Position numbers and translations under genes: made by a program | Assembly: GCA_051294905.1 (NCBI GenBank) | Contig: CM119372.1 | Coordinates: 62,001-126,000, forward strand | From: Botryllus schlosseri | Lineage: Eukaryota | DNA: 64,000 nucleotides | Direction: 5' to 3' | The notes under the pieces: generated by a model | What the model was told of the DNA's origin: nothing | Database searches by the model: none | Seen by the model: the letters and a program-made list of their open reading frames with translations, nothing else | Part shown: positions 13,199-64,000 of the stretch, piece by piece | How positions within the stretch are numbered: position 1 is the stretch's first letter | Layout: each line of letters opens with the position of its first letter

Positions 13199-14265
13199 GG
13201 TTGCCGGTGAACTCGGCACTTGGTGAATTCGGCCGGACGAACTCGGCACTTGGTGAACTCGGCACTTGGTGAATTCGGCCACTGGTGAATTCGGCCATTG
13301 GTGAACTCGGACATCGGGAAATTTTGTAATAAAGTGTATTAACAGCTATTAATATGAATTATTAAACCAATAATAGTATTATCAAGTGATTGGCAATCTT
13401 GTAAGGAGGTCAGGGCATGCGTAGATCACGCAGTCACGGCGTGATTAGATCACGTGATCACGGATTGCGCAAGCGCGGGAGATAACGCGACGTTCGCACA
13501 TCGACCACGCGTGGTCGGCTCGGTGTTGATTTGACTTGGCGTGGGACGGACGGACGACTTTTGAGAAGATGGATATCTGTGTTTTACGAAATAACGAAGT
13601 TTTAAAAGGATCACCAATAAACGTTTCCCACGAACACGAACAAAAATTTATAAACGTCAAAATAAATTGTTTTTTTTGTGCCTTTGGAGAGACGGATATT
13701 AGGGTTGGGGAAAATTAGGGTTTGGAAGAGGGATGTTAGGGTTGGGGAAAGAGGGATATTAGGGTTGGGGAAAGGGGGATATTAGGGTTTGGAAGGGGGA
13801 TGTTAGGGTTGGGGGAAAGAGGGATATTAGGGTTTGGGGAAAGGGGGATATTAGGGTTCGGGGAAAGGGAGATTGGAGGTGGGTTAGGGTATCCCAAGAT
13901 TAGGGAAGGGGGGATACTAGGTTGGGGGAAAGGGGGATTGGAGGTTGGGGGAAAAGGGTGATTGGAAGTGGGTTAGGCTATCCCAAGATTGGGGAAGGGG
14001 GGATATTAGGTTGGGGGAAAGGGAGATTGGAGGTGGATATCCCAAGATTAGTGCCGAGTTCACCGGCAAACATTCCAGTAACCAATCATGGTGACCGGTA
14101 CCGCTACGCGATCTACCACGGCACGTGATTCTTCTTTATCTGAGATATATATTCAATGCATTTTTATTACAAAAATTCCCGATGGCCGAGTTCACCAATG
14201 GCCGAATTCACCAAGTGCCGAGTTCGTCCGGCCGAATTCACCAAGTGCCGAGTTCACTGGTAATC
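13199..14265. mobile_element. Non-autonomous DNA element with 15-bp-subrepeat TIRs and an internal G-rich TTAGGG-containing array
   Basis: ggtgaactcggcactt repeats inverted at both ends; flanking direct repeat CTTTTGAA (13191-13198, 14266-14273, extendable to 12 bp). Confidence 0.85.
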
Positions 14266-15869: not shown

Positions 15870-16019
15870 TCAAAGCTCCAGGTGTTGGTCGAACAACCAC
15901 GAAGCGAGTTTGGCATTCCCTTCACTGTTCATGTTTTTGAGTGTGTTGTAATAATTGGCAATTTCCTTCGTGTCCTCGAGTTGATGATCCAAAAATTCGT
16001 GGACGATCATCTCGGCCAA
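15870..16019 (-). CDS. Ferritin H-like exon 7 (helices D/E and stop)
   Basis: ttatttcag|LAEMIVHEFLDHQLEDTKEIANYYNTLKNMNSEGNAKLASWLFDQHLEL*. Confidence 0.9.
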   Translation of the reverse strand: MAEMIVHEFLDHQLEDTKEIANYYNTLKNMNSEGNAKLASWLFDQHLEL

Positions 16020-19000
16020 CTGAAATAATCAGAAAGTTGCGTTTACAACTCGTTCTGCGTTCAGCGAAGACCCAATAACGAACCTCGACGTAGGCATAGC
16101 CAGCAACGAAACAATTTGGTTCCCCGCTTTCACAATTGCAGTCTGTGTAGTTGCTTGTTACCCTCTCTCCGGAATCGTGCTTGATGGTGATCAAAATCGG
16201 CTGAAAATAAGCAAGCTTGTAAATTCCGTGGAACGAATATACTTGAGCAGGATTGACGAGTTTGGCCAATGAATGAGGCATAGATGCTAGATCGCGCCAC
16301 AGCTCGGAAGCGCATTCATCAGCAAAATAAAGAGCTACAACTATATACAACAGCTTGGAGCGAAGCGCAGCTGCTGGCCCAAATACTGCGATTATCTCGT
16401 CAATTCCTTGGGCGAAACAATCTGTGATTTTGTTTTACCCAACAAAAGCACTACCTGCATTTTGCCTATTCAACGGGCGTTTTACCTTAATATCACTGAC
16501 GGGATATATTTACTGGCATAATTTGAGTAAATTCACAAAAACGAGCGTAAATCTAAAAAAAACATACTTGTAGTGCTGTTAGTGCTAAGCCAATTTCGAG
16601 GTATTATGCGAGCGTATTGCGTAGACGTCTATGGCATTCACGATTCACTTGAATCAGTGTAATCGGTCGACCATTAATCCGGAGATGTCGAGGTTGAACC
16701 CCATTCTCCGCCGGCGAATTTCACCAATATATGAAGCACCGAGCAAACTTGTAGGACGTCTCGTGAACATAAGACTTATGGTAGGCTACTTCGGAATTTT
16801 GAAAAATGACACAAATTTCTCGGCTCTGCCCTCATAATGTTGTCGGTTACCTGCGTGAGGCGAAGATCATCATCCTCCAATGCCAACAGGTCTTCGCAAT
16901 TGGATTCGCCGGTAAATTGTATGTTCGAAGCAGCCCTGAGTAAGAAATCAGTACCAGTTTATCAAGAATTTCGTCATTCCACACACCACAAGACTGCGAT
17001 ACAATGTAAAGATAGGTAGGTGTGGAAACAGCATGGAGTAGTCTTGGAAATCAGACACACATCTGGGCCTACGCGATAGGAGGCATGCACAGTGAATGAA
17101 ATATAAATGATAATACAAAAGGACAAGCGGAAAAATGGGGTGGTAGGTGATAGGAGGCGAGATCGATGTGTCAGGTCGTGGTCCGGTAAACTTGACGGCT
17201 GACTAGTAGGAAACGCGACGCGCTACAGACTACTCACTGGTGTAATTCTGTGAGTTTTCTAGTCACATGAGCCTCCAATTCCATCGCACACCGAAAAGCT
17301 TCCTTCACATCCATCGCTGTCTTGCAGCTACCTTCCTCATAAATCTAAAACGGTCGAAAATCATCAATTCTTCGATATCTATAGGCGGGTTTAATAAATT
17401 ATTCTAGGCATAGCAGGGCTGCGAATTTGTGCACAAGAGGCGTTCCTGCACTTTTTTGATCGTGGACGTCTTCTAAAATTGTAGGCGGTCGCGCGTGCCC
17501 CCAGAATTTCAGAAGCCAACGAGAGGAACGTCACTACATCAGACTGAACTCAATTTAGGTTATTACATGCCTAAAATAAGATCACTGGTGACTAGACAAG
17601 GTTGTCAGTCCTACTCATGGCCTAATTCTCGAAGGATAAGCTGTTTTTGTAATTTCTTGAAGTATCACTTTTTCAGGGATCCCCTAAAACTAGTTCGCAG
17701 ACTCCAGTTCAAGAACCCCTGGCGTATAATAAGGTTTTTCATCCTTCCGACCAATCAATCGGACTTGTACTAACCACTATATAAATCTAGTTAGTTGATG
17801 TTCAGCTAACTACTGGCTTTTGGAGTAGTTCTAGATACGGAATTCGAAGATCGGGTAGTTTCAGTTCTATCTCTAGTTTGAGTTGCACATTTTGAAATTA
17901 TTTAGTGCTAGAGCAAGCGGGGAAACACATGTCGCCGTTTGGCGTGAATTGTGATACCGGTCCTGCTGTGTGATGTTATTGCAGCCATTGCTATCTCATA
18001 GTATCTAGGGTTACCATCAGAGCTGTGGAGTCGGTAAATTTTACCACCGACGTCTACTCCTACTCCACACATCTTCAATGGACCGACTCCGACTCCGACT
18101 CCGACTCCGGCTCCGGCTCCGGCTCCGGCTCCCCCTCCGACTCCGACTCCGACTCCCACCCCGACTTCAACAGTATTACCAATTTACTTCGAAAATTATA
18201 TGCCACTGTGACGGTTAAATGACTACGCTTTATAATTAATAACAATTATGTCATGAAAACTCTGTGTACAACTTTACAGTGTGCAGTCATGACCTGGTCG
18301 TGCGAAGCACGAAATTTGTTCAAAGGTAATGAATAAACTCGATCAATAAATATATTACTTGCAAAATTGGGGATCGCCTCTGTATAGCAATGGGCTCATT
18401 TGGCAAGACAGGATTATTTCGCGTTTTAGACATAGCAATATCGACGGTTTCTGTGAACATGCCTCTGTCATTTTGTGCAAATGTTTCATCACCGACGATC
18501 TCGCTTCGAACGCACAAGCGAAGTCGCATGTTGTACGACACGTTCTCTCAATTGCGAGTATAGTTGGACTCAATTCTGTAAATTACGCGTATTTCTAATT
18601 TCCGAGGGTTTGCAATACTAAATGCATGAAATGTGACAATAAATCGCGCGAAGTGCGAAGAAAAATTTCAAGTCAAATAAATCTGCTACGGAATATTCTA
18701 CATTATGGTCGATTTACGAAGATCTGCGATGAATGTGGCTGGCCCCTGGTTACGGCAATGCGTCGAAGCTGATGTTTTATTTATCATCAAATTTCGCGGT
18801 CAGGCTAATCAAATTTTGTAAGGCCTTGCAATTTACCTGATGTTATATCTAATTTCAAGAATTACCTCGCAGGCCACACAAAACCTTCTAGCGGGCCACT
18901 TTCGGCTTGTGGGGCACGGTCTGGCCGCCCCTGATCTGTATCGCTAATAATAAAAGGGATTGATGGTACATAAAAATCATATTCTAGTTATTATTAGTAA

Positions 19001-20114
19001 TTCAAAGTTATCTTCGAAAGCATTTTTTCTCAAGATCAAAAGGTTGGGGTCGGAGTCGAAATCGGGTCATTTTCACAAACTCCGACTCCGACTCCAGTTA
19101 GTATTTTTTCCACGACTCCGACTCCAGCCACCACAGTTTTCACGTCTCCGACGCCATCAATTGAAAATTAGCTCAACTCCCGACTCCGACTCCACAGCCC
19201 TGGTTACCATACGTCCTCCTTCAGGAGGATTTGTCCTCCTTTTTCAGGTTTTTGAAAATGTCCTCCGAGGACGCCTAAATGTACTCCTTTTTGAGATTTT
19301 GTCCTCTTTTTTGATAATTTTGGTTGGATGTATAGTGCCAAGTTCGACTGAGTTACAATAAATCAGCACTGAAGTAACGCTCCGTTATCAACCATTTTCA
19401 TTTTTTTTAGTCAACCGACCACGGAGTGGGGAAAATTTACCACTTTTTCGAAATTTTCCTCCGGTATTTTCAGTTTGAAAATTTTCAAGTGTCTTCCTTT
19501 CCCGATTCCAAAATATGGTAACCCTATAGTAATCACTACTTATAAACGTTTACACGTGTTTTCTAGTAGTTCTGAAACTAAGTTTATTTTTAAAATGCGC
19601 AACTAGAACTACTCCAAAACCAGCAGCTAGTTGTCACAGGTAGTTTAACAAGCCTGTAAACGAAAATCTGACATACTGTGACAAGACTCATTTCAACAGT
19701 TCCGCCTCGTTGATTCTGATATTGAATGAACCGTTCCGCATGGGCAAGTTCTTCCATCGATTTCTGGCGGAAGTATTTCGCTACTTTTGGCAAGTATTGG
19801 GAATGGCGTTCGAACATTTGTGCCTGTCAAAAAAAATCTGCTATCGCTGCAGGGTGAAATATGAATCCAAGCTCACCAATTTCTGGTAAGTGTAGTGCCC
19901 CGTCAACTCCGTCCCAATCTGCAGATTGATCCGATTGTTTAAATCGTTGTCATGGCATCTGAATACCTAAATACAACAAAGATACATTTTCGGATATCCA
20001 ATTCCGGTGACTATCCATTATTCTGCTCAAACCGCGGATACTCACCATTTCGCAATCGCGGCCCGAGCATGTCTGCAAGACAAATGACAAGGCAAATACG
20101 AACAAAATCCTCAT
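15870..20114 (-). CDS. Secreted ferritin, heavy-chain-like (ferroxidase centre intact), 7 coding exons, 254 aa
   Basis: Exons 20114-20046, 19966-19877, 19823-19677, 17344-17238, 16935-16851, 16200-16084, 16019-15870; all introns GT-AG and phase-compatible (765 nt). Signal peptide MRILFVFALSFVLQTCSG; INLQIGTELTGHYTY; SMEELAHAERFIQYQNQRGG; AMELEAHVTRKLTELH; EFLDHQLEDTKEIA; WLFDQHL. AATAAA at 15830-15825. Confidence 0.9.
16084..16200 (-). CDS. Ferritin H-like exon 6 (second half of the C-D insertion)
   Basis: ttttcag|PILITIKHDSGERVTSNYTDCNCESGEPNCFVAGYAYVE|gt; phase 0-0. Confidence 0.72.
16851..16935 (-). CDS. Ferritin H-like exon 5 (first half of the C-D insertion)
   Basis: Phase-2 acceptor completes the Gln split by exon 4; AASNIQFTGESNCEDLLALEDDDLRLTQ|gtaacc. 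Confidence 0.8.
17238..17344 (-). CDS. Ferritin H-like exon 4 (helix C)
   Basis: ttttag|IYEEGSCKTAMDVKEAFRCAMELEAHVTRKLTELH..|gtgagt. Confidence 0.88.
18006..19526. mobile_element. hAT MITE (tagggttaccat TIR) whose left TIR is interrupted by a (GACTCC)n hAT MITE at 18018-19202; lies in ferritin intron 3
   Basis: Inner element has exact TSD GTTACCAT (18010-18017, 19203-19210); outer element ends atggtaacccta. Confidence 0.85.
19677..19823 (-). CDS. Ferritin H-like exon 3 (helix B)
   Basis: AQMFERHSQYLPKVAKYFRQKSMEELAHAERFIQYQNQRGGTVEMSLVT|gtatgt. Confidence 0.93.
19877..19966 (-). CDS. Ferritin H-like exon 2 (helix A)
   Basis: VFRCHDNDLNNRINLQIGTELTGHYTYQKL|gtgagc. Confidence 0.9.
20046..20114 (-). 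CDS. Ferritin H-like exon 1 (signal peptide)
   Basis: MRILFVFALSFVLQTCSGRDCEM|gtgagt. Confidence 0.85.
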
Positions 20115-21350
20115 TTTCAAATGAATGCAAGCACAAAAAATGATGAACTGGAAAGGCAATCACAATCGCTTAGTTGCAACGTTTATTCAGATTAGTCATT
20201 TCTAAACATCACACGAATGCGATACAATGAAAAGTTAGGAAGGTGTCAAAACAACTTGGAGTAGTCTTTGAAATTAGACATCCACCTGGTCCTAGGCGAT
20301 GTAAAGAGGAGAAATTCTCACAGGATGAAAAGTATAAGATAATACAAAAAGACAAGCGACAGAGTGTTGCGGTCGATTCCACTCCCGGAAAGCTACATGG
20401 ACTAGAGCGCAGTCTTCTTACTGTGAATCATAGCCAGTCCGCTAGTTTACCGGACCACGAGCCGGCACATCCACCTCGCCTTCCGACACATGCCCCCTAT
20501 TTTTGTCGCCTGTCGTTTCATATTACCTTCTTTTACTTTTCATCCCGCCGCCTGCATGCCTCCTTTATATATATATATACACCTGCAACGCTAGTCCGAA
20601 AGCAACCGTGTCCCTAACCATTATCGGAACTCCAAAACAACTACAGCTTCAGTCACCATGAAGAACTAAGAACCTAACTGACATATGCCCGGCCATAAAC
20701 AAGCGCCCTTTTCCCATCGACCAATGCTACGACTGATCGGTCGCTCTGTTTACGCCAGCACAGTTAAATTGCTGTTGCGCTACGACGTCAGCAAATACGA
20801 AATCACGCGCTTCTAATCAGGCCATCACAAAGGTCGTTCTCTTTGTCTTGCACAATATCGCTTTTTACGATTGCATCAGTACAAATACAACTTGCAATAG
20901 TGACAATGTGAAAACGTAGATAGTCGTAAAGCATCGAGGCCGAGGCGGATTTGCTTTGTGTAGTGTAATCTCGCGTCGGCGTTCTAATAGGGCATAGTCC
21001 AGTCGCGTAATAGGAAAACTTGGCGCCATTCTCAACTTATAACTGCTAGACCAGACTATTGTAGGCTACAGTTTAGCAGAACGGATCTTTCGATATCTTT
21101 ATGCGCTCACGAGATCCAGTCCAACTGGTATTTTCATCACGTGACAACGCGATTCGGCCTTTACGGAAGGTACGATTATGAAAGTGGATTTTCGACCCAA
21201 CCAAATTAAGCAACTTGTTTGCTTGCGGGCAGAGGTCGAGCATAGTTTGTGTGTTTGGAACAGAAGTTGATTCGCGACGTAACCGAACGTATATGTCAAC
21301 TCGAAGGGTACACGAGATGCAATCTGTACTGGGAGAAGGGCAGTCCCGTA

Positions 21351-21875
21351 CAGACTTGTGTAAACTAGCAATCTAGTTATTCGTGGTCAACCAACTACTG
21401 TTTTTTAGTATTTCTAGTTCTGTTAGCGAATTTTAAAGGCTGAGAAGTTCTAAAGGAGTTGTGGATCTTGAGAAATGAGTAGATTATATAGTTATAATTG
21501 CGCGTTTAAAATATTATACTAGAAGAACAACTACAGAACACCCCTGTTTTACTTTGGCGTGAATCGTGATACCGGCGTTCTGTTGTGTGATGTTCCTACA
21601 GCCATTACTAGTACAGAGTCACAGTACGGTGTAGCCAGAGGACGGATTTTGGGGTCGCAACCCCTCCCATTGCAAACTTGTACTGGAAAACCGATCTGAT
21701 ACCGATAAAATAAAAACAGATGAGTTATACTTCGTAATTGAATTTATAGTTAGGTGGGTTTTAATTAGTTACTTCGGATTTTAAAGGTCGTTGGTCATAG
21801 TTTTGAAAAGTGAGTGGTTTTTAATAGCCTACTATAGTTGCGCATTTTGAAAATCCAATAGTTTGTACAAGTCTG
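21351..21875. mobile_element. MITE family with cagacttg/caagtctg ends and CTAGTT-rich subrepeats; relatives at ~17760-18000, 19560-19657, 26971-27170 and 57971-58650
   Basis: Shared termini and internal motifs across copies; TSDs degenerate. Confidence 0.55.
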
Positions 21876-24818
21876 ATCCCAAATAAAACGAGTCTCAGAT
21901 TTTACATTGAAGAAGCGGGTGACAGATAATGATTGCTATAATGCTGGGGTTTCCATTTCCATACTTTTTATTCGTGTTTGTAAATTAGATACCAAATATA
22001 TTCAAAATCAACGGCGCAGTTGAAGAGTTTGAGGCATGGCTTCTCTGCATCTCCTCATTCTACTTTTGGTTACTTCGCAAGCTGTAAGTCTTGTAATCTG
22101 CGTTATTTCATTCATCCACGACAAGCTCCGTTTTCTGTCAGATATCCAATCATCCAATTCAAACGGAAACGTTCACTTTTGATAACCGCGATTGCCGAGA
22201 TGGTTACACTGTTACGCTCAACGGCTCTTCTGTCCGTGTGAATAACCCACACCATTGCGAATGGGACCAGTGAGTGAATTTCTGGTATTACTTGTAATTC
22301 AGTCGGTGAAGCATGGTATGTCGCGTCCCAGAAGCAGCCCCTAATGCAGGGTTATTAACCGGTGTTTCATAGAACCACAGTCCTGGCGGTTCCATGGAGG
22401 TCGCGATATAGGGCTGGGCAAAATCGGGTACCTGAGTGATTCGAATATGAATCCCGTATTATGCATCGAGTCAAGTCGAGTAATCGAGTATCACCTATTA
22501 TCACGTCATAACGGAATGTAAAAGTCAAATTTCAAATTTGTACCGTTTATGCGACCACGAAGAATATAATGCCTGTTATCCATCTCATAAATGATACTTT
22601 GGTAATGATGGCTCAATCACTAGTAGAATTGCAACTTTTGTGGTCGTAAGTCATGTGTCGTGGCTCAGTTCTTGGGTTCGAAATCGAAACCACGTCTTTC
22701 TGAAGTGCCGATTTTATCTCTACTATTTTAAACCAATTTGCAGTTAAGCGATTGGTATCACGCTGTTGAGTTTCGACCAAACAATACAATGAAACTTTCC
22801 AAGGTGAAGCCTTGCAGAACAGAAGTCACACTGATCAATAAATATTCATCATCATGTATTTTGTTTTGTGTGTTATAATGATTGCACCGAGGTCATGTCA
22901 ACGAATTTACGTAGCCTCGCACTTCTTCATTGTTATTCTAACAAATGCTACGCTAGCACTCGCACGTTCTAGTATAGGCCCAAACTTTTCTTCAAAATAA
23001 TCCACGTTAAATTTGACCCAATATGGATTACTCCGTCACCGCTAAGAGCGGCTAAACATCGGTTGTGGCTCATAATACGAAATGAAAATCAACTGCTCTT
23101 ATTCAAAATTTCATGCGTCATATTTTGTGATACGTTTGTTGATATACAATGCTCTTTCCAATTCTCTACTAATTGCTGACGATTACCCCTAACGAGTGTC
23201 GACCGAAAATATTCGGGTTCATTTCAATATGAATATACTATTCAATTGTATATTGAAGTTCTGTGTCTCCAAGACGTTCTCCATCACAATATATATATTC
23301 TATATATATATATATATATCAATTTCAATTCAATTCAATTTATTGCAAAAATTTCATCATTTCAATGCACCACTAGACTGCGATACAAAGAAAGATAGGA
23401 AGGTGTCGAATCGACTTGGAGTAGTTTTCAAAATAAGACAAACACCTGGCCTGGGCGATTTAGAAAGGAGGCATGCACTGCACACTGTATGAAAAGTAAA
23501 AGAAGACAATATAAAAGGACAGGCGATAAAAAGGTGGTATGTGTAGGAACGCGAAATGGATATGTCCGACCGTGGTAACTGATATTGATTCAGTAGAAAT
23601 TGTTTGTATTTCGACTTGAATATGAAAGGTCAGAACCACCTGAAATCGGTGCAATTATAGAACAGATTCCATAACGGGCTCTGACATTTTGATTTGCGAA
23701 AACTGTCGCCTGGGCTCTGTAATACGCTCGCGTATTTAATTGTTCACCAGAAATCAGGGAGTCACCAATTTACAGCAATTCCGGACTCGTTGGCTTATCA
23801 TACACGTAAAATTGTCAACACGAGTACAGTGTATGATCGCCATTTACGCACGTATTCCCTATATTGGATTGGTGCTATATTGGTAAATTTGAAAAGTAAA
23901 ATCCAAACTCACGCTTTTTATTTCACTCCCCTCCTTATTTTTCGGCTCGCTACGCGCCTTCTGTCACAAAGTGCAATGAAATAGGCATGGTCGAAAATAT
24001 ACTAAACTATGTTCAATGTGACATAAAACTGGCTTTGATTCTTTGTGGTCGCATAAAAGATACATGTGCCTTGTCTATGCTTGAGTTAGAGATCAAAACG
24101 GTGTATATTGAGAGAAGCAGTATTGTAGAACCGCAATAACCGAGTCTTTTTGCGTCTCGACATTCAGGAAAACTCATCACGAAGGAGTGAAAATAAAAAA
24201 GATTGAATCATTGGTTGCCAACGTGACAGTTCCCAGACCACCGAACAACGAGAACATGACATACTTATTCGAACTCGCCAAGCATAAGGGCAGGAAAGAC
24301 AGAATCTTAGCGACCGCAAAGATTCTTTTCTCGGTGAGTGGGCCTTATATGTGGATCGAGCTTGAGGCCAATTGTACCAGCCATGGTTTTCTCTTATACT
24401 GGAACAATGTTCAGTATTTTTTGACTCGATATGGTGTTGTTGAGCAGTGTTGCGAACCCGTTAACTTTCAAAAATCTGATTCCATAGACTACTCCAAGTC
24501 GCTTCGACATCTTCCTGTCTTTTCATTGTATCGCATTTTTGTGGAGTATTGAACTGATAAAAATTGCTAATAAATCAATGATGATGAAAACAAAATTAAC
24601 CCAAAACGTAATTACGGCTAATGTATACCGGGCAAAAGTAGTTATCGAAAGCCTAATTTAATCCTACCTTATAGATATTAGACGTGCTATACGTGATTCT
24701 ATTGAAGTTTCCGCATGGCGAGGCGCCTTTAAAAACGCTGTGTCGTTTCTCCTTAAATTCCAAAACCAGCGATAATTCGGGAAGACTAGTGTATCGAGCA
24801 GACAAAAATGATTACACG

Positions 24819-25273
24819 TAGGGTTGCATTTAAAATAAACGGTGTTTTAAAACACTTCGTTTAAAACATGTTTTGAACAAAGTGTTTTAAACAAAGGTAT
24901 TTTTGAAAAAAAATTGTTTTGTTTCAAGTTGTAAAATTATGCCATAATTGTGTAAATACTTTCCAAAAAACATGTTGTATGAGCCTACGGACAATTACCA
25001 CCCTATATAGCCGACGTATATCGATATGAGATGGTTGGAACCCTCAAAATAGTCGGTTCAACATTAATAGTACACGCAGATATTTCGTCAAATGAGCTAT
25101 ATTTACTCTATATTTTCAATTCCCAATGCCAATCCACTATGACGTCACAAGTGAATATTCGTGACGTCATGACTTAAAAAAAACGTAAAAAACAATATAA
25201 AACATGTTTTAAATTAGGGCCTTGTTTTAAACATGTTTGTTTTAAATAGATTTTTGTTCTAAATGCAACCCCA
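24819..25273. mobile_element. hAT MITE (tagggttgcattt TIR)
   Basis: Exact TSD ATTACACG (24811-24818, 25274-25281); second copy at 46362-48298. Confidence 0.85.
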
Positions 25274-26263
25274 ATTACACGAAACAGATGAATACGAACT
25301 GGAAAGTGCGCATCCTCTCAGCGAAAAGACTATGTATTTTCACCCGTGCACCACCCCTGATATACGGGTGCGAATATATACATCGATATGGTGCACTCAC
25401 ACCGCGGTATAAATCGAGTACAACATTTTAATCCAAATTATGCAGGAGCATCGCACTGCGAGTTAATCTATCTCGCCTTCTAACAGTTGTTCACTGACTA
25501 CAGCGGCATTTTGGCTACTCTGCTGTATTTCCCTATTTACGTTCGCAAATGCTTAATGCTTATACTCGTATATCGATCATGCGCAGGACTAAATTCGAAT
25601 TCGAAGGCTTGAGCCTACACCACTGCACACTGTTCAGTTTCGCGCTACGACTATAAAACTATCACGAAAGAACGTGTATTTGCTCGTCTAATTCAGAGAA
25701 GGAATGGTGTTTCTCGGCGCGCGCGCGCGCGTCCAAATCGACAATGTGCAACGAGCTCACGTTTTTATCATTTGGAGTCGCTTGCTCCGATTACTGGTTA
25801 GTTAATTTGCTCACATAAGCATTAGTCCCGTTTCGCGAAATATACAGTAATCATTATATTTCAAACCGCGCAATTGGCCATCAAGGTTGTGCTGATGACA
25901 AAATTGCAGGTATGCCGGATGCCCACAATGGCCACAAATATCAGAGAGTAGGCCAATGAGGGACATATCCTGCGTACCCAAGTTCGTGCCTATGTAGGCT
26001 ATCAACATGTGACTCCTCCGCTGTCAATTCCCCACGAACATGTCTAGAAGTGGCAACAATTCTTGATTTTGTCAACGGTTGCCATAAAACCATGTGAATT
26101 CATCCAATAGTAGTTGAATTCTTATGAAATACATCGGAGCCATAGCTACTCTTCAGGCAATTGGCTCGAAATCCGCTGAAAATCCATGGCGGCCCCGGCT
26201 CCGAAGCTCTGACCACAACGATGGCATATTATGTGTTACTCTGGCTCTGACAATTTATTTCAG

Positions 26264-26347
26264 GAGTACAGCAGCGAAGGATTGCGAGAACTTGCAACAG
26301 ATGTCGTCCATGCGCTCATCACGCTTCATTACGACTTGGTTTTTCTG
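26264..26347 (+). CDS. Ferritin L-like helix A exon
   Basis: tttcag|EYSSEGLRELATDVVHALITLHYDLVFL|gttagt. Confidence 0.78.
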
Positions 26348-35300: not shown

Positions 35301-38300
35301 TCTGACTTAGACTCCATGTATTGCATAGAGATAACAATTTGACTGCATTACTGAAATTTTAAAAAATTTACTCCAATCTCGCCATTTTCCTTTGGGTGCA
35401 GGTTGCTCCCCGGATTATGTGTGTATTGACCAGTTTCTTACTGTGAATAAAGAATATAATAATAATTTGCTAATAATAATAATAATAATTTGCTCCTACC
35501 ACTTTTGCAAGGAAGATTTTGCTGCTAGTGCATTATAGATACACCAATACAGTCACGTCTAAAGAGAGGTGCGATTCCCAGTTGCAATCTCCGTGGTGAA
35601 GCAGAAGATACGCGCATTGCAAAGAGGCGGACCCTGAACTCCATGCCGTGTCAACTGTCTTCCTCCAATGTTGTGGATGATGCACATGCAAATCTTACAT
35701 TGTCATCTGGTGATCATGATCTAGAATCGCCATCGTGTAGCCTTGAAATGGAATCTTCAAATCCATCACCTGAATCTTAGGGTTAGAAGCCAACAAAGTC
35801 AGTCATATGCAGATTAGCTACCTAAGCCCACAGGACATCAGAACAGAGAGGATGTGCAGAATGGGGTACATACATAGGACTCTTCGACTCACAAGTAGCA
35901 GTTTTGGTAGGGTTTTAGGCTACTTTGAGGGGAACAAGAGAGCAGGTACTCCATATGCAAAATCTCTTTTCAAATCACTTCAAGGACAGTACAGTATGAA
36001 CAGGTATTCGATATTGTGGGGGTTATTGCACGAAGAAATGGTCATTCAAGACTACTAAGCATCACTCATATGAATGTAGCAAAGATTGGTCTTGTTTATT
36101 TTCCATATGGATATCTGGGTGCTTCACATGATAGAGTGATTCTAGCTGAGCAGACCTCATCTGCACTGGTGTGCTTGAGGTATCGTAACAGCACATGCGA
36201 TGAGTTCATGAAATTTGAACTTGGGCAGAAATCACAGAAAAAGAGTTTTTATTTGACTGCTGCTAGATAATTACAAGTAAATCACTCTTATTGGCATCAA
36301 ATTCAGGCCTAAATGTATGCCACAAATAGTCCTGCCTTCTTATACTCTGCATTTCCAAGCCTTCCTGTCCTTTGCGTTGGAAGAAAATGAATGGAAAGAT
36401 CTGTTCTTCCCCAGTTCATTGCCATTGGTGGCACTGCATTCATAAACACAGCAGTATTTCGGCATTATATTTCAGTATATGTTATTAAATATTTTCTTTC
36501 CATTCCTAATTTTATTATTGATGAAGAAATAAACATTTCACTGTAATCTCGTCATTTTTATACAGTCTACACGGCTATAGGAATATATCGTAGTGCCGAC
36601 TATAGGCTTAGGTAAATGCAGCGTCCTCCGTTGCTGCGCCGTATCCATGGCCATTGTCTCTCGACCAATCAGCGTAAAGTTTGGTTTACGGCCGTATAGA
36701 ATATCGGATCAACATTACTGTTGTCATTATTACGTCACAAAATCATGTCATTCCAAGTGCTCCTAAAACCGTTGCACAAACGTGTATTTGTTCCTACACA
36801 GCATTCAATAGTTCACGTTCACACATAACAAAAGCGATCGTATTCCGTGAACAGCGATCAACGTACGCTTCATGAAGCTTGTACAGATCACGCGATAAAA
36901 TGTATGAAACGTCCAAGTATGGAAATGTCGTTCCATACCATAGATTAAAATCTTCCATTCCATACCATATACTTGCAATGTTCCATATTCCATACCAAAA
37001 TATCGATCCATACCATACCATACTTCCATACCATACCATGCCCTGCTTAGCAGTGTTGGGATGACTCGAGTCATGACTTGACTCGAGTCAGACTCGAGTC
37101 ACCTTTGTCGCATGACTTGACTTGACTCGAGTCACTTTGCTAAAATGACTTGACTTGACTTGACTCGGCGTATCAGAAATGTGGATTGACTCGTGACTCG
37201 GAGCAAAATTCACGAGTCAATTTCAAGTCATCAAGTAATCGGTGTCGATATAAATCACAGTATCTTGCATATGTTCGGATTGTTCGCGAAACGCTTGTGT
37301 AGCCCGTGAAAGCGACCAATCATTCAATGACCGTGCGTTTCACTGAGCCTCGATTGTTCTCTCACAAATAAATTGACCGCAAACGAAGTGATAGAAGCTT
37401 ACAGTATACGTTGTCGTAACTCAAGCAGTAAAGTAATAGAATAGCAAAATGTATATTTCTGTTATCTGTTCTTACCATAACCAAACCTCTTGTTTTATTG
37501 AAATTCAAGTAGAATATAGTTTATGTAGTCCTCGACCAGGGTTGTAATGACTCGAGTCATGACTCGACTCGAGTCAGACTCGAGTCACGATTTTTTTGTG
37601 ACTCGACTTGACTCGAGTCATTTTCTTAAAATTGGAAAATGACTCGACTCGACTCGAGTCAATATTTGGATTGACTCGACTTGTACTCGAGTCATTACGC
37701 ATGACTCGACTCAAGTCATTGACTCGGCTTATTTCATATGACTTGAAGGTGAAGAAATTTGGGAATTACAATGGTTAGATCAACGCATGTGACGAATTCT
37801 GTCGACATCGCTATTTGTCACCACTGCTTTCGTTGCACTCGTCTGATATCAGATATGCCGCCGTAAAAACAAAAGACAATGGTACATAGTAGCAAAGAGC
37901 AATGCATTGTACAAAATAATCCCGTGGTGAAGAGGTAATAGTACTCAAGACTTTTCAATTATACAAGCAAACAATCGAAGCAAAGTCCAATTAGAGCCAA
38001 TGAAATGACTCAGATGGTCAAGTAGCCTACTTGGAAGAGACTGATAAGCTCATGTGTAGATTTGAAGGCGATGATTCTTTGTATTTTTGGGCGACTAGAA
38101 AGGATGAGTATCTAATGCTCTTCTGTGTGGTTCAAAATTGCTTTTCAATTCAAGCATCTAATGCAACAGTGGAACGTGTATCCAGTAGATGTGGATTATT
38201 CTAAGGCCATCCGCCTTAACATATATGAGAATCTCCTTTCCACTTTAGTATTTTTAAGTGTAACTCATTGATTTGATCTGCTGTCTGTATAAACACACAA

Positions 38301-41300
38301 TACCCTCCGTCCATTTGACGTTTTGTTAGATATGTGCATTGTGCACGTGATTAATAATCAATGGCTAATGTTGTGTGATGTTTGTACAATAGGGCCGATC
38401 AAAAATAACTTTTTTTTTATTCTACATGGTGGCTACTTGATAAAATTGTTACGTTGCATAAAAAGAACACTGAATCTGGCTTGATTTTAAATAGTGGAAT
38501 CAATGATATGAGAGGAGAAAATATTGGATTTGAAAATACATGGAGTATTTTTAGTGAGAAATGATTTCATATAATATAATTACTAGGGCGATTTTTTTTG
38601 ACATGTCAAAAAAAGTCAAAATAAGGTCAAAATTTTAGCGTTAAGTCAAAAAATGTGAAAATTGACAAAATTTTTCGCAACCTGCATTTTATTTGTATCG
38701 TAGATTTTACGCAATCGGTGAACTTATCGTTTGACATTTTACAGTTTGTAGCCTACTTTATAGGCCTACCGTGGCAGACGGCACATTGTCTGCTCATTGT
38801 GAATCATAAACAGTCAAATGAAACAAATAGGTTGACACGGTGTTATGCTCAGCGTGCCGCAATAATCTGAGTGAAGTAAGACTGCGTGGGCATTGCATGG
38901 TTCTTACAAAAATTGAGATATGCATCATTGTCAGAATGAAGCAACACGGTGTGTCACCAGCAGTGTACGCACGCACAACTTCAGTGTTGCCAGTCAATAG
39001 CTGTTTGTATATTCATGGTGTTGTCGACTACAATGGTCATTTACACCAGGCCGATATTCCTTTTTTTCGATTCCGTATCCGCCGAGTATTTGCCGACTTG
39101 TAGCACGGCCCACTCCTATGCTTTTTGTAAGACACCGCTTACGCGGATGAGATGGCGAGGAGGAACCTAGATAAACCTTCAACACTTGGGTAGGAATACT
39201 GGAGTCGACCTCGGTCGGACTAGAACCTAAAACCCATTGGAGTTGTTGCTGTGGATTATCCCACTACGCTATCTCGCCTTCGCCAAATCTTCATCCTTGG
39301 CAAGCTAGTTAGTAAAGACAGACACTTTTTACCCGAGAATCAGGGATATCTAGAACTAGATATCCATGCGGAGAATGCAGGAAAGTATCTTTCGATGTAC
39401 TACAACAAATGTTAATTATTTCCACCATAGTACATCATGTACTGGAATTCATCACAGGGCCAAATTTTGTTAAAATATTATTTCTTCATGTAAAAATTTG
39501 TCAGTTTTTGAGTCAAACAAGTTTTTCAGGGAAAACTACTTCGTAAGGACAGACAATTCAAACCAGAAATGAGGATAAGTAGTAAAATTCTAACATTTTT
39601 TGGGAAAACACCTAATTTGCATACGTTAGGTCAAAATTTGGTCAAAATTTAGTTTTTTAAGGTCAAAAAATGTCAAAATTTAGATTTTTTAGGTCAAAAT
39701 CTTTCGTTTTTTAGGTCAAAAAAAATCGCCCTAATAATTACATACTAGTAGTAAGTCGACTATTTTTTCATATTCAAAATATTCCACTCTAATAACTTCG
39801 CTTCTTCTAGTTGGAATTGAGCCAAATTTGCTATGAATCATACTTTTACACAATCTAACAATATCATGAGGTAGCCGGTAAAATTCGAAAGTCTCTTTGT
39901 AATTAATTCAAAATATTTTCTCATAGCATTGCTTTCTACTGGTTGAAATTGAGCCAAATTTAAGTTCTTTCAGATAATCTAATAATTTAAAGAAGTAGCC
40001 TCCTTTTTAAGATTCTGCCCTGATTTTTGAGAATTTTTGGTAAATGTAGGGAAAATTCGACTAAGATAACAGTAAATCAGCACTAAAGTAACGCTCCGGC
40101 GACTACTTCGGGAGCTGAGCAGGAAAGTTGACATTTTTCTGGTCAACCACCTGATTTAATGTGAAAGCAAAACCGCACCTCTACATAAACGTTTATTTGT
40201 TGATTCTCTACCAGCTTGTATCTAGACGTAAATTCGTAGGTTCTCTATCAGATAGTATGTAGACGTGAATTTGTTAATTCTCTATAAGCTATTTGTGAGC
40301 GGTCGTCGATGTGCTAATAATATAAACTGATTGCTTGCATTTGTGATATATCAGACTGACAGATATTGGATTTAAAGTTCTAAGATTAGTAAAGTTATCG
40401 TATTGGCGGCCCGTCTCGTCTATCTGCAGCATCGGTAAATGAGGCCAGTCCGTTATCTGCCTTAATAAACATGTGCCAAGACTATGATAGGGACAAAATA
40501 AGCATGTTTGGCAAGCAAGGAATTCGATATCACCCAAGCAGGATTGAAAACATAAGTTGAACATGACTTCAATACTGTGACTTGGACTCGACTCGAGTCA
40601 TAACACTATGACTCGGACTTGACCCTTCAAACGGTGACTTGGACTCGGACTCGAGTCGGTGATGAATTGAAAATGACTCGACTCGACTCGAGTCAAAACC
40701 ACAAAAGTCAGATTGACTCGTGACTCGGAACCATGTGACTTGGTTACAACCCTGTCCTCGACCATTGTCGCAGGCTCCAATAGTATCGTATCTATCTGTA
40801 ACTGGGTAGGCTACAATGTATTGCATCATTATCATTCCGATTCTCTATTCTCTATTTTGGCTGCTAACCCTAAACTGAGACTATGCAATTACGTAGTTTA
40901 CCAGTTCTACGCATATGTGACCGATACAGCACCTTCTTGCGCTTATATTTAACTCTATATTCGTTCATCGGTTCGGAATCAATGACCACTCGAACTGTAT
41001 TTCAGACAGCTAGAAAATTGCAATGACGTATTCATGCCTCATACATACTTCGAAAGGGCAACTTGACTTGAAATGTGACTTGACTCGTGACTTGACTTGA
41101 CTTGACTTGACTCGAGTCACCTCCAAAAATCGAGTGACTTGACTTGACTCGAGTCACCTTTGAAAATCGATTGACTTGACTTGACTCGAGTCAAAATGTG
41201 CAATGACTCGAAATGACTCGTGACTCGAAGGTAGTGACTTGATCCCAACACTGCTGCTTAGTGGATCGAATGCGAAGCCTCGAGAAGTTGCAACAAATTG

Positions 41301-44300
41301 ATATCTACACATCCGCGAGAATATAAACGCATAAACTACGTTCGTTCGATTTAAATGATAGGGGAGATGTGGTACCGATGGATCAAAAATCGGAAAATGA
41401 TCGCTGGCCCTGAAATGTTCAGCTGAAAACAGCATATCTTTTGCTGGCTCAGCACTTTGATACAAGCTCTACCTATCGCGCACATATACATGAATATCCG
41501 TCGTTTCAAGAAATATTTATGGGCGTTCAAAATTTGTTGCTCGAACGTGTCATCGGTCCCCACCCGGTGGGTCCAATGACTCACGACCCGGGGACCTATG
41601 ACACATATACCCTAAAAAACTCAAATGTGACTACTTTTCTTGCTCAGTATTATAATCTAAGCTACAGCAAGCCAAAGAAGAATGTTTGGTCGCAACTGTC
41701 AAAAAATAGAATAAATATTAACTCAAATGTTGTCATAAAATCACGTTTCGATTTAGGCTCGGACTTATAAATTTGAGGGTACATACATATTGTCTGAAAA
41801 TCGACAGTGTGACTTCCAAATACCTCGTTATAGCGATAAAACATCATATGCAATTATTACATAAACATTTTCTGTACGTATACATTTTTCATTTGTTTCA
41901 TGATTAGTATGCTTGATTATTTTGCTTGATTTGGCTATTGTATCATCGGTTCCCACCCTACGAATTTTATACATGAATCGAAAAAAAGTCCACTCAAGGA
42001 AAGTACTGAAAAAAATAATAGGTGCCATTATATAGCCTGATACAAGTCCTACACTTCACAATAAAAATTATTGCTGGTTTGTTCGTGTTGAAGGTTACAA
42101 AGAAAAATGTATATGTCGATCTAAATTTAGTTTAGACCCCCTAAAACAAAAATCATCTGTGAGAGACCACATTGCTCGCGCACGTCGATTTTTTTTGTAT
42201 GTGAGGAAAGATTTTCCCAGCATACCATTGTAGACAAGTTCACGGAGTGTAATCATGGAATTATCATAGAGAATTTTCAAAGTATTTTCGGTCCCAGTGA
42301 TCCATCGGTACCACATCTCCCCTACATGAGGGTTGGTTAAGGTGATCACTGCGTAATATAAGCACTGAGTGGTCGCAGGAACAAGATACGTTGCTTATTA
42401 GATTAATCTACTACTGCTACGACAACGTATGCTGTGATCGTTTCGTTTGCGGCCAATTTATTTGTGATGTAGCAATGGAGTATCAGTGAAAGGTACAATC
42501 AGTGGATGACTGGTTTCCCTCACAAGTGACATCGACGTATTGCGAACAATCCGAGCATACATAAGAAAGGGTGATTTAATCGACACCGTTTACTTGATGA
42601 CTTGAAATTGACTCGTAAATTTTGCTCCGAGTCACGAGTCAATTGACATTTATGAAGCGCCGAGTCAAGTCAAGTCAAGTCATTTTACATGGTGACTCGA
42701 GTCAAGTCATGACTCGAGTCATCCCAACACTGCATACCTGTTCTTTACATCGTGTAGGTCGGGGATCATCAAACCGGGGTACGCGAGCAAATTCACATAG
42801 TACACATTCACTGTGACAATTTCAAGGTTTATGTGTCAAGCGAGAAAAAAGCTTAGGCTTGCCAACTGCAGCGTTTAGGGCTTGAGCAGCGATGCCGCGT
42901 GACTAATAATTGGGCTGCTTGTTGTGCCGGGCCGTAACTGCCACACCCAAAACCTCCCAATTGGAGGAAGCCCGAGCTCGAAGAGGGCTCATAACTAAGT
43001 CGTTTATGAACTCGAATTATAGAGTATTTTAGAAAAATTTATGCCGATTTAGCGCTGCCAAGTGTATTGATTTTTGGGAACACTACCCCAAAAGGAAAAC
43101 TATGCATGATTTATATAAATGGGCATTCCGGCATCGGCCATTATTGCGTCACGGTGTGTCAGGGCATGGAGCTTAGGCAAACATGGGACTCTGAGAAGTG
43201 TGCCAAAAAGATCGGCAGCGGGTAAACATTGGCCAAAAAGGACTGACCTAATGTTGACCGAAAACTTCGATATATATATACATATAAATTTATAATTGTC
43301 CATAGGGGCCTGAATAGCTGGCGCCGAATTTTTAAGTCCCGGCAATCTGCACAGCACAGGACAAATACCATCATCCAGAGAAAAGTTCCTTATCAGTAAA
43401 AAAATACCAATTTGAAATCGTGTGGGTCTTTTAGTTTAGTACGTTTGGGCGATTTCAATATTTTATCAGCTATACAGCAGACAGAAAGTAAAAAATAGCA
43501 ACATGTCAAACAATCAATCAATCGACAGATTATATTTTCATTTGCCCAAGACACATACACAATGTACAATGCGATATACAAGACACACAAAACAATGTCA
43601 TGAACAGATAAGGGGATGCCGAGCGACCAACCAGTTGGGGTCTCTTGAACTGGCAGTAAGTAATTATACCAACAGGCCCGCTCGAATATGTCTAATTATT
43701 AATTACGTGCCATACATTTTCTAAGACAACATCTCACTCATTTCTAACGGCAAATTTGATTACGTGGGGTCAGAGAGGATGAAATATTTCTTGAAAAATA
43801 TATATGCAATGACCAATATTATTGGCTGATTCAATCATGAATTATAGAAAATTTTCGTGCGATGAGGACGTCTGAACTCACTGTTGATTACCAATATGAA
43901 ATCTCGAACACAAGTAGTAGTGAAAACAATCATTCCAATGAAGGATTGGGGGGGCTGCGTCCCCCAGACGTTTGGTCCATCACCCTATGGAGGCGGCCAA
44001 GACCAACGTTTTTTGGGGGAGGGAGGGGGCTGACGAAGTGCTGTTTCGACCCTGATGCTGTATAACGTGAATCGCTTCGAAGAGATTGATAGTTTAGTAA
44101 TTTTATGTTGCTCCTCAGCCGTGGTGATGAGTTTTTCCGTAGCCCATTGTCGATTTCGGATTAGTTCTGTCAGCAGTCATTTTTTGAATATGATGATTAC
44201 TTTATTAGCGCTATTCAATGTTCGGTGTTTTGCTTCTGTACAAATAGCCCTGGTCGTGAATAAATACCAGATTATTTCGCTGTAAAGCAGCTGGCATTAT

Positions 44301-45252
44301 TTTCCATTGACCAAATAAGGTACAAATTAAACCTGAGAAGTCATTCATTAAGCTATGACATTATAATAGCACGTAGTACTCAAATCCAGAGTTGGAAATT
44401 AATTGTAATTGTAATTGTAATTGGGCTGAATGTAATTAATTCATTTTTTCATGTAATTGTAATTGTAATTGAGCTGAAATAATGTAATTAATCCAACTCT
44501 GGTGAGAACTCGCTAAGTCGGCAGACTCGGACGACTAGAATATTATAGCTGTCTAATGAGACTAATTAGACCGAAATGTCGGTAATCTCATTCTAATCTA
44601 ATTTGTTAAATGTTTATGCTCTCATTTTAATTCTAATCTATACTTTGATTTTCGCGAAAATGCTAAAGGATAACTGTATGGCGCGAAACGATCCAAGCTT
44701 GCTGCACATACATTTGCCATTCTCATGCTGATGAGAATTAACTCTGAGTTGATATGAATTGAACTTGATTAATGTTGTATATATTTACCAAGGAATACGA
44801 CCGCGGCCATTGATTGCACTTTTATCGACAGAATGTACACGTCAAGGATACAGAATAAAATATCCTCGATGACCAATATGTCGCCATTACTAATCCCAGT
44901 AACACTTTGATTACACGGAGATATCAAATAGGCTAATATGCGTTGCTTGATTTTATTGACTGTGTGTCATATTACTGTTATTATTAGGGTTTTAATGACT
45001 CAAGTCGGACTCGAATACCAAATTTTATTTGACTCGACTTGACTCGAGTCATTGCGCATGAGTCGACCATGTCATTTGCATTGAGTACACTTTTTTCAGC
45101 TCTCAGAGTTCATATCTGCCGAACTACTTCCTCAAGTCACGAAAAACATCGGATCTCTCAAAAACGTGATCGAGACAGCGCTTGGTGGCGCTCATTCCAC
45201 GTCCGATCGACACTTGAAAGAATTTTTATTTGATAAATACCTTGATATCTAA
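26264..45252 (+). CDS. Divergent ferritin paralogue lacking most ferroxidase residues (light-chain-like); 4 confident exons, N-terminus uncertain
   Basis: Exons 26264-26347, 26809-26928, 27190-27393, 45100-45252; all GT-AG, phase 0. Aligns to the neighbouring ferritin (ITLHY/LTGHY; PKVAGYFR/PKVAKYFR; FRKAYEFE/FRCAMELE; EFLFDKYL/SWLFDQHL) and shares two intron positions with it. AATAAA at 45252-45257. Confidence 0.82.
26809..26928 (+). CDS. Ferritin L-like helix B exon
   Basis: ttttcag|SHRHQRSSCFHPKVAGYFRNLAKEKVSTLDAVIKFIHEKQ|gtag. Confidence 0.82.
27190..27393 (+). CDS. Ferritin L-like BC loop and helix C exon
   Basis: ttctag|ATEDATTDCPTNY...MISSFRKAYEFETNLARTLTQVFHHSENNKEIE|gtgaga. Confidence 0.82.
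28782..29893. mobile_element. hAT MITE nested in the MITE at 28619-30307
   Basis: Exact TSD CTGTATGT; the empty site is visible in the paralogous copy at ~15205-15225. Confidence 0.92.
30848..32442 (+). mobile_element. Deleted hAT (Charlie/GTF2IRD2-like) element with decayed transposase, copy 1
   Basis: TIR caagggtcggcaacc / ggttgccgacccctg; exact TSD ACCTAAGC; remnants such as VKTVNMI, QYGD and LRNEIATF. Confidence 0.9.
32760..35487 (+). mobile_element. Truncated R4/Dong-like (restriction-like endonuclease) non-LTR retrotransposon
   Basis: AINSLAVPVLRYSFG..RLYIPRKKGGRGL; CRMC..ETVAHLMSGC zinc knuckle; RHN; NRPD..IE..K nuclease motif; (TAA)n tail; TSD ATTTGCTCCT (32750-32759, 35488-35497); stops and frameshifts present. 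Confidence 0.88.
33728..34683. mobile_element. TA-target MITE (Tc1/mariner/pogo-type) inside the LINE
   Basis: TIR ggg.agatgtggtaccgatggatca; TA TSD; removing it restores the LINE frame (ATEY-TWRHN). Confidence 0.9.
37537..40754 (+). mobile_element. hAT element (cagggttgtaa TIR) with a transposase dimerisation-domain remnant at ~38025-38270
   Basis: Exact TSD TCCTCGAC; FW..RKDEY..L....SIQASNATVERVSSRCG motif. Confidence 0.88.
38584..39733. mobile_element. hAT MITE with ggtcaaaa subrepeats
   Basis: TIR tagggcgattttttt; exact TSD ATAATTAC. Confidence 0.88.
41361..42322. mobile_element. TA-target MITE, inverted second copy of 33728-34683
   Basis: Same TIR, TA on both flanks. Confidence 0.9.
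42927..44054 (-). mobile_element. Free copy of the cagggccgtaac-family element; another copy starts at 62141
   Basis: Homologous to the nested segments 5021-5979 and 9883-10860; termini degenerate. Confidence 0.7.
45100..45252 (+). CDS. Ferritin L-like last exon (helices D/E and stop)
   Basis: ttttttcag|LSEFISAELLPQVTKNIGSLKNVIETALGGAHSTSDRHLKEFLFDKYLDI*; AATAAA overlaps the stop. Confidence 0.85.
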   Translation, partial: LSEFISAELLPQVTKNIGSLKNVIETALGGAHSTSDRHLKEFLFDKYLDI

Positions 45253-45597
45253 ATAAATGAACTGATTTTTTTCTGTGAAAATGTAAGGACCAATAGAATG
45301 CTAGGCTTCTATTTTCTGTGTCCGCGCTCTTTCAATAAGGGCGCGTCAATATCATCTCGCAGACAAATCCATCTCACAATGTCACGATATTGAAGCCAGA
45401 GGTAGTTAGCAGAGCAGGATTTTTACTTGTAGCCTACTATTCAATCAGGTGGCTTTCTTTTGATGTTACTGACTCGTGTTATATTTCTCCCTTTTAAGTC
45501 TGACTGCTTCGCCGAGTAGGTATTCTTTAATTAAATATTTGCATCACTGATATGCGCGAGGTGTGCTCGGTTGGTGATGGGTGCTCACTCCTTTGGG

Positions 45598-63800: not shown

Positions 63801-64000
63801 AAAGTTTCAGACACGAGCATAAATATGGTGTCGAACCAAGTAGGCTAGCTTTGCGTTATCTAACCACTGTAACACATCAAACGCTGTCGCGCTACGATCA
63901 AACGTGGTTCACTGCTCCGCAGAAGCCTCTTGACCCTTTTAAAATCTCAAGTTGAACAACTTCATATGATCAAATCTTAATTTGTGTTCGTCGTAGAGGC

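Follow-up and report, generated by a model that had tools for sequence, protein, structure and literature searches.

A 64,000-nucleotide stretch of the Botryllus schlosseri genome (hereafter the window, whose positions are used throughout; C2:62001-126000 of the 495-Mb assembly in which the own-genome searches were made) contains two divergently oriented genes of the ferritin type, with coding regions at 15870-20114 on the minus strand and 24256-45252 on the plus strand. The locus is a real and partly new pair, i.e. a secreted, active ferritin and a ferroxidase-dead relative, and its minus-strand gene adds a member to a tunicate family of secreted ferritins that is annotated yet undescribed and carries a distinctive structured insert. 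In the reading that we favour, at a probability of about 60%, the minus gene encodes a secreted active ferritin and the plus gene a cytosolic, non-catalytic protein, the two products having different likely destinations. A preliminary description made from the sequence alone had reported two opposed ferritin genes in the window, one active and one dead, arranged head to head; this observation was real, though mis-modelled in three respects. The corrected exon chains on both strands bear out the opposed genes, and the pairing of an active with a dead gene stands as well, as all seven ferroxidase residues are kept in the minus product and at least four are lost in the plus product. The coding regions had been placed about 6 kb apart; since the plus gene starts in an upstream exon (24256-24333), the start codons actually lie 4.1 kb apart.

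The minus-strand gene consists of seven coding exons, all with GT-AG borders, with an open frame of 254 amino acids. Exon 1 (20046-20114; ATG at 20114-20112, donor GTGAGT) encodes a signal peptide of 23 residues (MRILFVFALSFVLQTCSG...). Helix A, with the equivalents of E27 and Y34, is encoded by exon 2 (19877-19966; 30 residues, AG/GT borders), which was aligned by tblastn to residues 21-61 of the Styela clava orthologue P0002, and helix B, with PKVAKYFR and the equivalents of E61, E62, and H65, by exon 3 (19677-19823; 147 nucleotides, 49 residues), which is 69% identical to P0002 residues 54-102 in the same type of search. Exon 4 (17238-17344) covers the last part of the B-C loop as well as helix C, with the E107 equivalent, and ends in phase 2 at the donor CA/GTGAGT, which needs an exon starting at 16935. 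The five-exon model first proposed had missed two exons (16935-16851 and 16200-16084) and was broken because the exon ending at 17238 cannot join the last exon in frame. The missing exons were found with the insert of the orthologues, which matched both places. Once the Styela orthologue had revealed exons 5 and 6, a micro-exon, a pseudogene, and an assembly error were dropped as explanations of the junction at 17238. Exon 5 (16851-16935) encodes the first half of an insert between helices C and D and ends in ...EDDDLRLTQ, matching the P0002 motif DDDDLRLTQ, and exon 6 (16084-16200) encodes the second half (PILITIK...YAYVE), which corresponds to the strands modelled in P0002. Exon 7 (15870-16019; stop codon at 15872-15870) contains helices D and E with the Q141 equivalent and is 61% identical to P0002 residues 200-250 (tblastn, E 1.6e-14).

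Exon 3 alone matches the Pfam family Ferritin (PF00210) with 33.3 bits (E 5.5e-8; cut-off 24.5), and a whole-genome scan finds the same place. The minus gene is single-copy according to an own-genome protein search, in which the only other ferritin found was an ordinary one on C16. The signal peptide, which had been claimed for the minus product, was judged by the length of the uncharged run and by Kyte-Doolittle hydropathy rather than by a dedicated predictor; the N-terminus has a 16-residue uncharged hydrophobic run with a best 10-residue value of 2.99, similar to that of its family (median, 2.77). The claim that all seven ferroxidase residues are present was likewise confirmed in the family alignment described below. 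These positions are E27, Y34, E61, E62, H65, E107, and Q141 in the numbering of the human H chain; their equivalents in P0002 are E43, Y50, E77, E78, H81, E126, and Q213, and the offset between the two numberings fits the ranges obtained in a search of PDB sequences.

A HMMER search with the 49-residue exon 3 yielded 77 protein matches, with proteins of about 250 amino acids at the top; a word-based homologue search with the same exon gave no match, which is weak evidence only. The best full-length match was a 'ferritin heavy chain-like' protein of Styela clava (250 amino acids; 71% identical over exon 3), and a relative from Clavelina lepadiformis is annotated as 'ferritin heavy chain B-like'. 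Each of the top relatives of about 250 amino acids carries a leader and is longer by about 60 residues in the region between helices C and D. With a profile built from four members, 53 proteins were collected at E <= 1e-10; those with names are all from tunicates, i.e. Styela, Clavelina, Ciona intestinalis, Ciona savignyi, and Phallusia, and the rest are transcript-sized contigs without names. The members include XP_039266899.1 and XP_077967255.1 of S. clava (250 amino acids), CAK8682820.1 of C. lepadiformis (248 amino acids), F6VNH0 of C. intestinalis (248 amino acids), and H2YJB8 of C. savignyi (246 amino acids).

An alignment of 34 members contains 45 invariant columns, including the seven ferroxidase positions, two cysteines (Cys109 and Cys121), and L162 and Q166 of the insert. 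The minus protein retains 42 of these 45 positions, among them L162, Q166, Cys109, and Cys121, and its insert of about 60-67 residues is comparable to that of the family (about 57-67). In a tree that is unrooted and was built without insect sequences, the protein is placed inside the secreted clade (SH-like approximate likelihood-ratio test (SH-aLRT) value of 97 for the enclosing set); by path, the rows closest to it are Styela P0002 and P0087, and the local fork is left unresolved by the tree. The minus protein thus resembles the Styela, Clavelina, and Ciona proteins in signal peptide, ferroxidase residues, the two cysteines, length, and a C-D insert with the motif L..(T/G)Q, and it shares about 55% identity with the one from Styela. 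The tunicate entries are automatic annotations, and none of them resembles the plus gene. As judged by these comparisons, the minus gene represents, in a single copy, the orthologue of a secreted H-type ferritin, the named members of which are all from tunicates; so far as the members have names, its clade is not that of insect or mollusc ferritins. No paper on a tunicate secreted ferritin or on the C-D insert was found among titles and the beginnings of abstracts, in a search that had most subscription journals outside its coverage.

The position of the insert was determined by the search of PDB sequences, in which P0002 residues 27-141 and 200-247 aligned to residues 7-118 and 124-166 of solved ferritin chains; this two-piece alignment, with its gap between 118 and 124, places the insert in the C-D turn. 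An AlphaFold2 model of P0002, based on the 34-sequence alignment, reached a mean predicted local distance difference test value (pLDDT) of 88.1 and a predicted template-modelling score of 0.84. It consists of the ferritin helices and three insert strands (residues 168-174, 177-182, and 192-198), and the insert block has pLDDT values of 63-93, with its first, acidic part the least confident. Foldseek with this model retrieved human and frog H/M ferritins at target-normalised template-modelling scores of 0.84-0.88 (0.86 for human H). The tunicate insert is thus modelled as a small three-stranded beta sheet in the C-D turn. In ferritin, the three-fold channels are lined by helix C at its end and by helix D at its start, so that three inserts would ring each iron-entry pore from the outside; by this architecture, the inserts would sit on the outer face of the cage near the three-fold channels.

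The plus-strand gene consists of five coding exons with GT-AG borders and an open frame, with a product of 212 amino acids, and is single-copy in an own-genome search. Exon 1, the first coding exon (24256-24333 in its coding part; ATG at 24256, donor GTGAGT), encodes 26 residues without a signal peptide. Exon 2 (26264-26347; 28 residues) corresponds to helix A, with leucine at the E27 and Y34 positions, and exon 3 (26809-26928; 40 residues) to helix B, with HPKVAGYFR and E, K, and T at the positions of E61, E62, and H65. A long B-C loop and helix C with glutamate at the E107 position are encoded by exon 4 (27190-27393; 68 residues). Exon 5, the last one (45100-45252; 50 residues), contains helices D and E, ends in ...EFLFDKYLDI, and has its stop codon at 45250-45252.

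Reads from four bulk RNA runs with the same species label (X20, X22, X23, and X24) were mapped on 25300-45299, and the splicing predicted for the plus gene was matched exactly at three junctions, all of the GT..AG type. Exon 2 is joined to exon 3 (26347 to 26809) in 44 reads (28 from X20 and 16 from X24), exon 3 to exon 4 (26928 to 27190) in 82 reads, and exon 4 to exon 5 (27393 to 45100) in 152 reads (83 from X20, 15 from X22, 54 from X24, and none from X23). The last of these junctions spans 17.7 kb, and its 152 reads indicate that the intron is real and that the main form has no extra exon within it; hidden insert exons in this intron, considered as a candidate, were ruled out because the main joint runs straight from 27393 to 45100. 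A minor form that skips exon 3 was represented by six reads. The start codon had been placed at the ATG at 26231, which is rejected by 96 reads (69 from X20 and 27 from X24) that join the acceptor at 26263/26264 to an upstream exon ending at 24333 and containing an in-frame ATG at 24256; the 30-base consensus of these reads before 26264 corresponds to 24310-24332, exactly and uniquely. At the 3' end, reads terminate near 45269, about 15 bases beyond an AATAAA that overlaps the stop codon, and 23 reads of X24 have loose ends after 45269. Depth at exonic sites of single-nucleotide polymorphisms (SNPs) was about 190 in X20, for which about 6% of the run was read, and near zero in X23. The plus gene is therefore strongly expressed in some samples, and its expression differs strongly between the runs.

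Patches of RNA depth were also observed inside the 17.7-kb intron (32637-33970, 34638-35304, 36639-37305, and 40641-41307), formed by reads that are 95-99% alike and run into unlike sequence, together with a non-canonical 958-bp skip (33725 to 34684, TA..CC). These patches and the skip probably reflect repeats that are transcribed, or a polymorphic deletion, and not exons of the plus gene.

Thirteen SNPs were listed in the exons of the plus gene by read support and were not selected by codon position. Ten of the 13 are synonymous, compared with 22% of all possible single-base changes, and eight of the ten lie at third codon positions; even at a synonymous rate of 30%, the binomial probability of 10 or more synonymous changes among 13 is below 0.001. 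These polymorphisms point to purifying selection, and the excess of synonymous changes, together with the open frame, argues against a pseudogene. A decaying or non-functional transcribed duplicate, left as a relic of a local duplication, would agree with the extreme divergence of the plus protein (a branch length of 6.6 and 12 of the 45 invariant positions), with its lost catalytic residues, with the six reads of the form without exon 3, and with the fact that no orthologue was found. Such a relic is nevertheless very improbable in view of the frame that stays open across five GT-AG exons, the hundreds of correctly spliced reads with high depth in X20, the predominance of synonymous and third-position changes, and the AATAAA at the stop codon with reads ending shortly behind it.

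The loss of catalytic residues was examined position by position. The preliminary description had read L/L/E/K/T/E/V at the seven ferroxidase positions of the plus protein, and three profile alignments gave the same residues except that, with the alignment moved by one residue, the last V may read Q. The equivalents of E27, Y34, E62, and H65 are L, L, K, and T, respectively, and those of E61 and E107 are kept. Within these alignments, four of the seven ferroxidase residues have been lost for certain in the plus protein, and Q141 is possibly a fifth. The plus protein has no C-D insert, carries lysine in place of the invariant Cys121, and retains 12 of the 45 invariant positions of the secreted family, compared with 24 in the ordinary cytosolic ferritin on C16.

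The plus protein was scored against a profile of 47 secreted-family members, from which the genes in the window were left out, and against a second profile, made from 22 ferritins outside that family. The whole protein reached 30.9 bits with the former and 15.9 bits with the latter, the best of 500 shuffled sequences reaching 5.9 and 5.8 bits, respectively. Exons 2-5 were also scored singly. Exon 3 alone reached 15.0 bits with the secreted family, a value attained by none of 500 shuffles, and 3.5 bits with the other ferritins, whereas scores with the secreted-family profile were lower for exon 5 (6.3 bits; reached by 1 of 500 shuffles) and exon 4 (2.5 bits; 12 of 500) and not significant for exon 2 (144 of 500). 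In direct BLASTP comparisons with the exons of the minus gene, similarity was detected for helix B (31% identity, E 7e-6) and helix C (E 2e-4), and for neither helix A nor exon 5. Since exon 3 is clearly significant by itself, the ferritin assignment is sound for helix B and depends elsewhere on collinearity and intron positions. The motifs that had been noted as shared by the two genes were found in both, i.e. PKVAKYFR (minus strand, 19790-19767) and PKVAGYFR (plus strand, 26842-26865) in helix B, and T.HY in helix A. Further characters of the secreted family in the plus protein are P65 within PKVA.YF, T134 in LTQ, and, around the intron at helix D, L201 and E203. The plus protein is best described, on present alignments, as a relative of the tunicate secreted family and not as a member of it, as it lacks the signal peptide, the insert, and most of the invariant positions.

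Several observations weigh against our reading of the pair. The ferritin identity of the plus protein comes mainly from exon 3 in these sequence comparisons, and no Pfam Ferritin match was obtained with any of four pieces of the gene, i.e. an exon-A model starting at 26231, exon B, and the open frames of exon C and the last exon. A search of PDB sequences with the last exon retrieved no ferritin, only a chance match to a repeat protein. In helix D, the residues that the plus protein has in common with cytosolic ferritin are about as many as those in common with the secreted family, and in the tree the protein forms a branch of length 6.6 attached on the branch that separates the secreted clade from the other ferritins. 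A word-based homologue search, which is weak evidence only, and a metagenome scan, both made with exon 4, retrieved no orthologue of the plus gene. The plus transcript may have a further upstream exon encoding a signal peptide. The RNA evidence pertains to the plus gene, within 25300-45299. A 19-residue match to exon 4 in a 187-kb metagenome contig was taken as chance, and a protein-atlas search with exons 4 and 5 gave no usable match, only unrelated bacterial clusters.

The shared introns bear on the origin of the pair. Introns at the end of helix A and at the start of helix D, both in phase 0, are present in both genes as had been noted, and had been taken to suggest an old local duplication. 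This conclusion does not follow, because the ordinary cytosolic ferritin gene on C16 (C16:1297010-1300150; 173 amino acids; five coding exons of 9, 99, 147, and 126 nucleotides, followed by the last one) has both of them; these positions are ancestral and by themselves are no sign of a local duplication. The exon structure of the plus gene at helix D is likewise of the ancestral type found in the C16 gene, which means that the plus gene either split off before the insert arose or has lost both insert exons. Since the plus branch lies between the secreted clade and the rest of an unrooted tree, its origin is not settled by the tree. We consider it unlikely that the plus gene was derived from an ordinary cytosolic ferritin, or from a lineage preceding the secreted family, and came to lie beside the secreted gene secondarily. 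The ancestral structure around helix D without insert exons, the lack of a signal peptide, the several helix D residues in common with cytosolic ferritin, and the intermediate position in the tree would fit such an origin; it is opposed by the helix B exon, with its far higher score for the secreted family than for other ferritins, by the secreted-family characters PKVA.YF, LTQ, and E/L.E.I, and by the physical adjacency of the two genes. In the reading that we prefer, the plus gene would be a fast-evolving paralogue, most likely descended from the secreted lineage.

The N-terminus of the plus protein is central to its probable location. Exon 1 encodes MTYLFELAKHKGRKDR..., in which charges occur throughout and the longest uncharged run within the first 40 residues is 5, compared with 16 in the minus protein and 17-24 in six members of the family, named or representative. 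From the RNA evidence, the plus protein appears to lack a secretion signal. The exon hints at a degenerated signal peptide, because its length and first residues are like those of the leader exon of the minus gene, a likeness that is very short. From these observations we infer cage formation, cellular location, and any partnership of the two proteins as follows. The minus product would form an extracellular iron-oxidising cage for storage or transport in the blood plasma, the tunic, or the egg, and the plus product would be a non-catalytic protein of the ferritin fold that stays in the cytosol, where it would act as an L-like partner of the C16 cytosolic ferritin or alone.

The preliminary description had instead proposed a secreted heteropolymer, which is unsupported by the present data: the RNA-supported plus N-terminus is without a leader, the C-D insert is absent, and one of the two invariant cysteines is gone. 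In that proposal, the two genes are co-regulated from the spacer and both products are secreted and co-assembled into a plasma or yolk ferritin, as a chordate parallel to insect Fer1HCH/Fer2LCH. The head-to-head arrangement, the combination of one active and one dead subunit, the greater proximity of the dead subunit to the secreted family than to other ferritins, and the single-copy state of both genes are in keeping with it; in addition, plus exon 1 resembles the minus leader exon in length (26 versus 23 residues) and first residues (M..LF..A) and may be a former leader, and the plus mRNA may begin further upstream. Set against these are the RNA-supported N-terminus with charges throughout and no hydrophobic core, the missing insert and Cys121 with 12 of 45 invariant positions, and the spacer itself (20115-24255), which at 4.1 kb and with repeats is not a compact bidirectional promoter. 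An insect-like secreted heteropolymer is accordingly a less likely reading, and one that we regard as rather improbable.

Short interspersed repeat copies occupy 20181-20572 and 23336-23576 of the spacer, and 18% of the spacer recurs elsewhere in the window (blastn against the window). The spacer repeat is about 180-240 bp long and also occurs within the minus gene (intron 4) and the plus gene (intron 1). In the window as a whole, interspersed copies of about 170-240 bp, 74-86% alike and in both orientations, were observed at 12027-12271, 16955-17205, 20181-20572, 23336-23576, 24475-24575, and 55206-55387. The pattern of an iron-responsive element (IRE), i.e. a C bulge, a 5-bp stem, and a CAGUGN loop, was found at neither 5' end in the window, which is a hint only, as the untranslated regions are unmapped. 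An IRE-like hairpin motif, CTTCGTCAGTGAACGAA, is present at L001:934 in the C16 locus, upstream of the three-codon first coding exon of the cytosolic ferritin. Rfam called nothing on the window, the spacer, or the C16 ferritin locus; as the IRE-like element of C16 was also uncalled, this result is uninformative.

Other features of the window were observed outside the two genes. Tandem repeat blocks with units of about 106 bp lie in opposite orientations at 58-2281 and 7115-8444, with a 21-bp repeat beside each (1428-1612 and 6792-6976). These opposed blocks explain the odd GC content and the AT skew of the first 8 kb and, in their layout, resemble a large inverted satellite structure that lies some 62 kb from the end of the contig. 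A second satellite, with units of about 145-150 bp and 88-96% identity between copies, is present at 8914-9658, 11309-11817, and 12301-12741, some of its arrays being inverted. A G-rich tandem repeat of 23-24 bp with TTAGGG-like units (ATTAGGGTTGGGG...) at 13707-14034 may be a degenerate interstitial or subtelomeric telomere-like sequence. An open frame on the minus strand at 63553-63855 contains a C-terminal dimerisation domain of the hAT family (Pfam PF05699, 26.6 bits) and is probably what remains of a hAT transposon.

Iron transport between tissues by secreted ferritins is well studied in insects and has become a subject of study in molluscs. The insect Fer1HCH/Fer2LCH system resembles the tunicate pair in combining an active with an inactive subunit, encoded by head-to-head genes. 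Both insect subunits carry signal peptides, whereas the inactive subunit of the tunicate pair shows none, and the active tunicate gene falls in a clade whose named members are all from tunicates. Fer1HCH and Fer2LCH form a 1:1 cage in the endomembrane system (PMC4508113). The yolk ferritin of the snails Lymnaea and Biomphalaria is described as having a signal peptide and a 42-residue insert and no IRE (PMC10799875), and the chiton secretory ferritin AjsFer3 as having an extended, cysteine-bearing loop without helical structure that lies between helix B and helix C (bioRxiv 10.64898/2026.10.23.761458). The mollusc secretory and yolk ferritins, which are extracellular iron carriers, resemble the tunicate family in having a signal peptide and an extra insert. 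The site of the insert differs, being the C-D turn with a modelled beta sheet in tunicates and the B-C loop in AjsFer3, so that the tunicate proteins fall outside a definition by the B-C loop. Owing to the different sites in AjsFer3 and in tunicates, the two elaborations look independent and parallel.

The vertebrate L chain has a K62-E107 salt bridge, and its nucleation glutamates are at positions 57, 60, 61, and 64. The plus protein resembles it in having lysine at 62 together with glutamate at 107, in the loss of ferroxidase ligands, and in being apparently cytosolic. It differs in reading N, K, E, and S at the four nucleation positions and in a B-C loop that is longer by about 15 residues, and it is akin to the tunicate secreted family and not to vertebrate L chains. 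As a tentative extension, the locus may represent an independently built two-component tunicate ferritin, in which the secreted component, an old one, carries a structured beta-sheet domain at the three-fold iron channels and its neighbour has lost leader, insert, and catalysis to become an L-like subunit of the cytosolic ferritin, or, via an undetected leader exon, of the secreted one; we hold this to be possible, albeit doubtful. If true, it would provide a third convergent inactive ferritin partner, beside the vertebrate L chain and insect LCH.

To our knowledge, the ferritins usually attributed to chordates are cytosolic and mitochondrial only, apart from a leaky serum form. In the preferred reading of a secreted active and a cytosolic non-catalytic product, the sister group of the vertebrates has a conserved, dedicated secreted ferritin with an add-on at a site other than that of the mollusc one, and convergent solutions to extracellular iron transport become directly comparable. 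The plus gene, highly expressed, constrained, and catalytically dead, offers a case in which to ask how catalysis is lost from ferritin subunits and how their compartment changes. Ascidians are noted for accumulating metals, and a plasma ferritin would be relevant to their metal biology.

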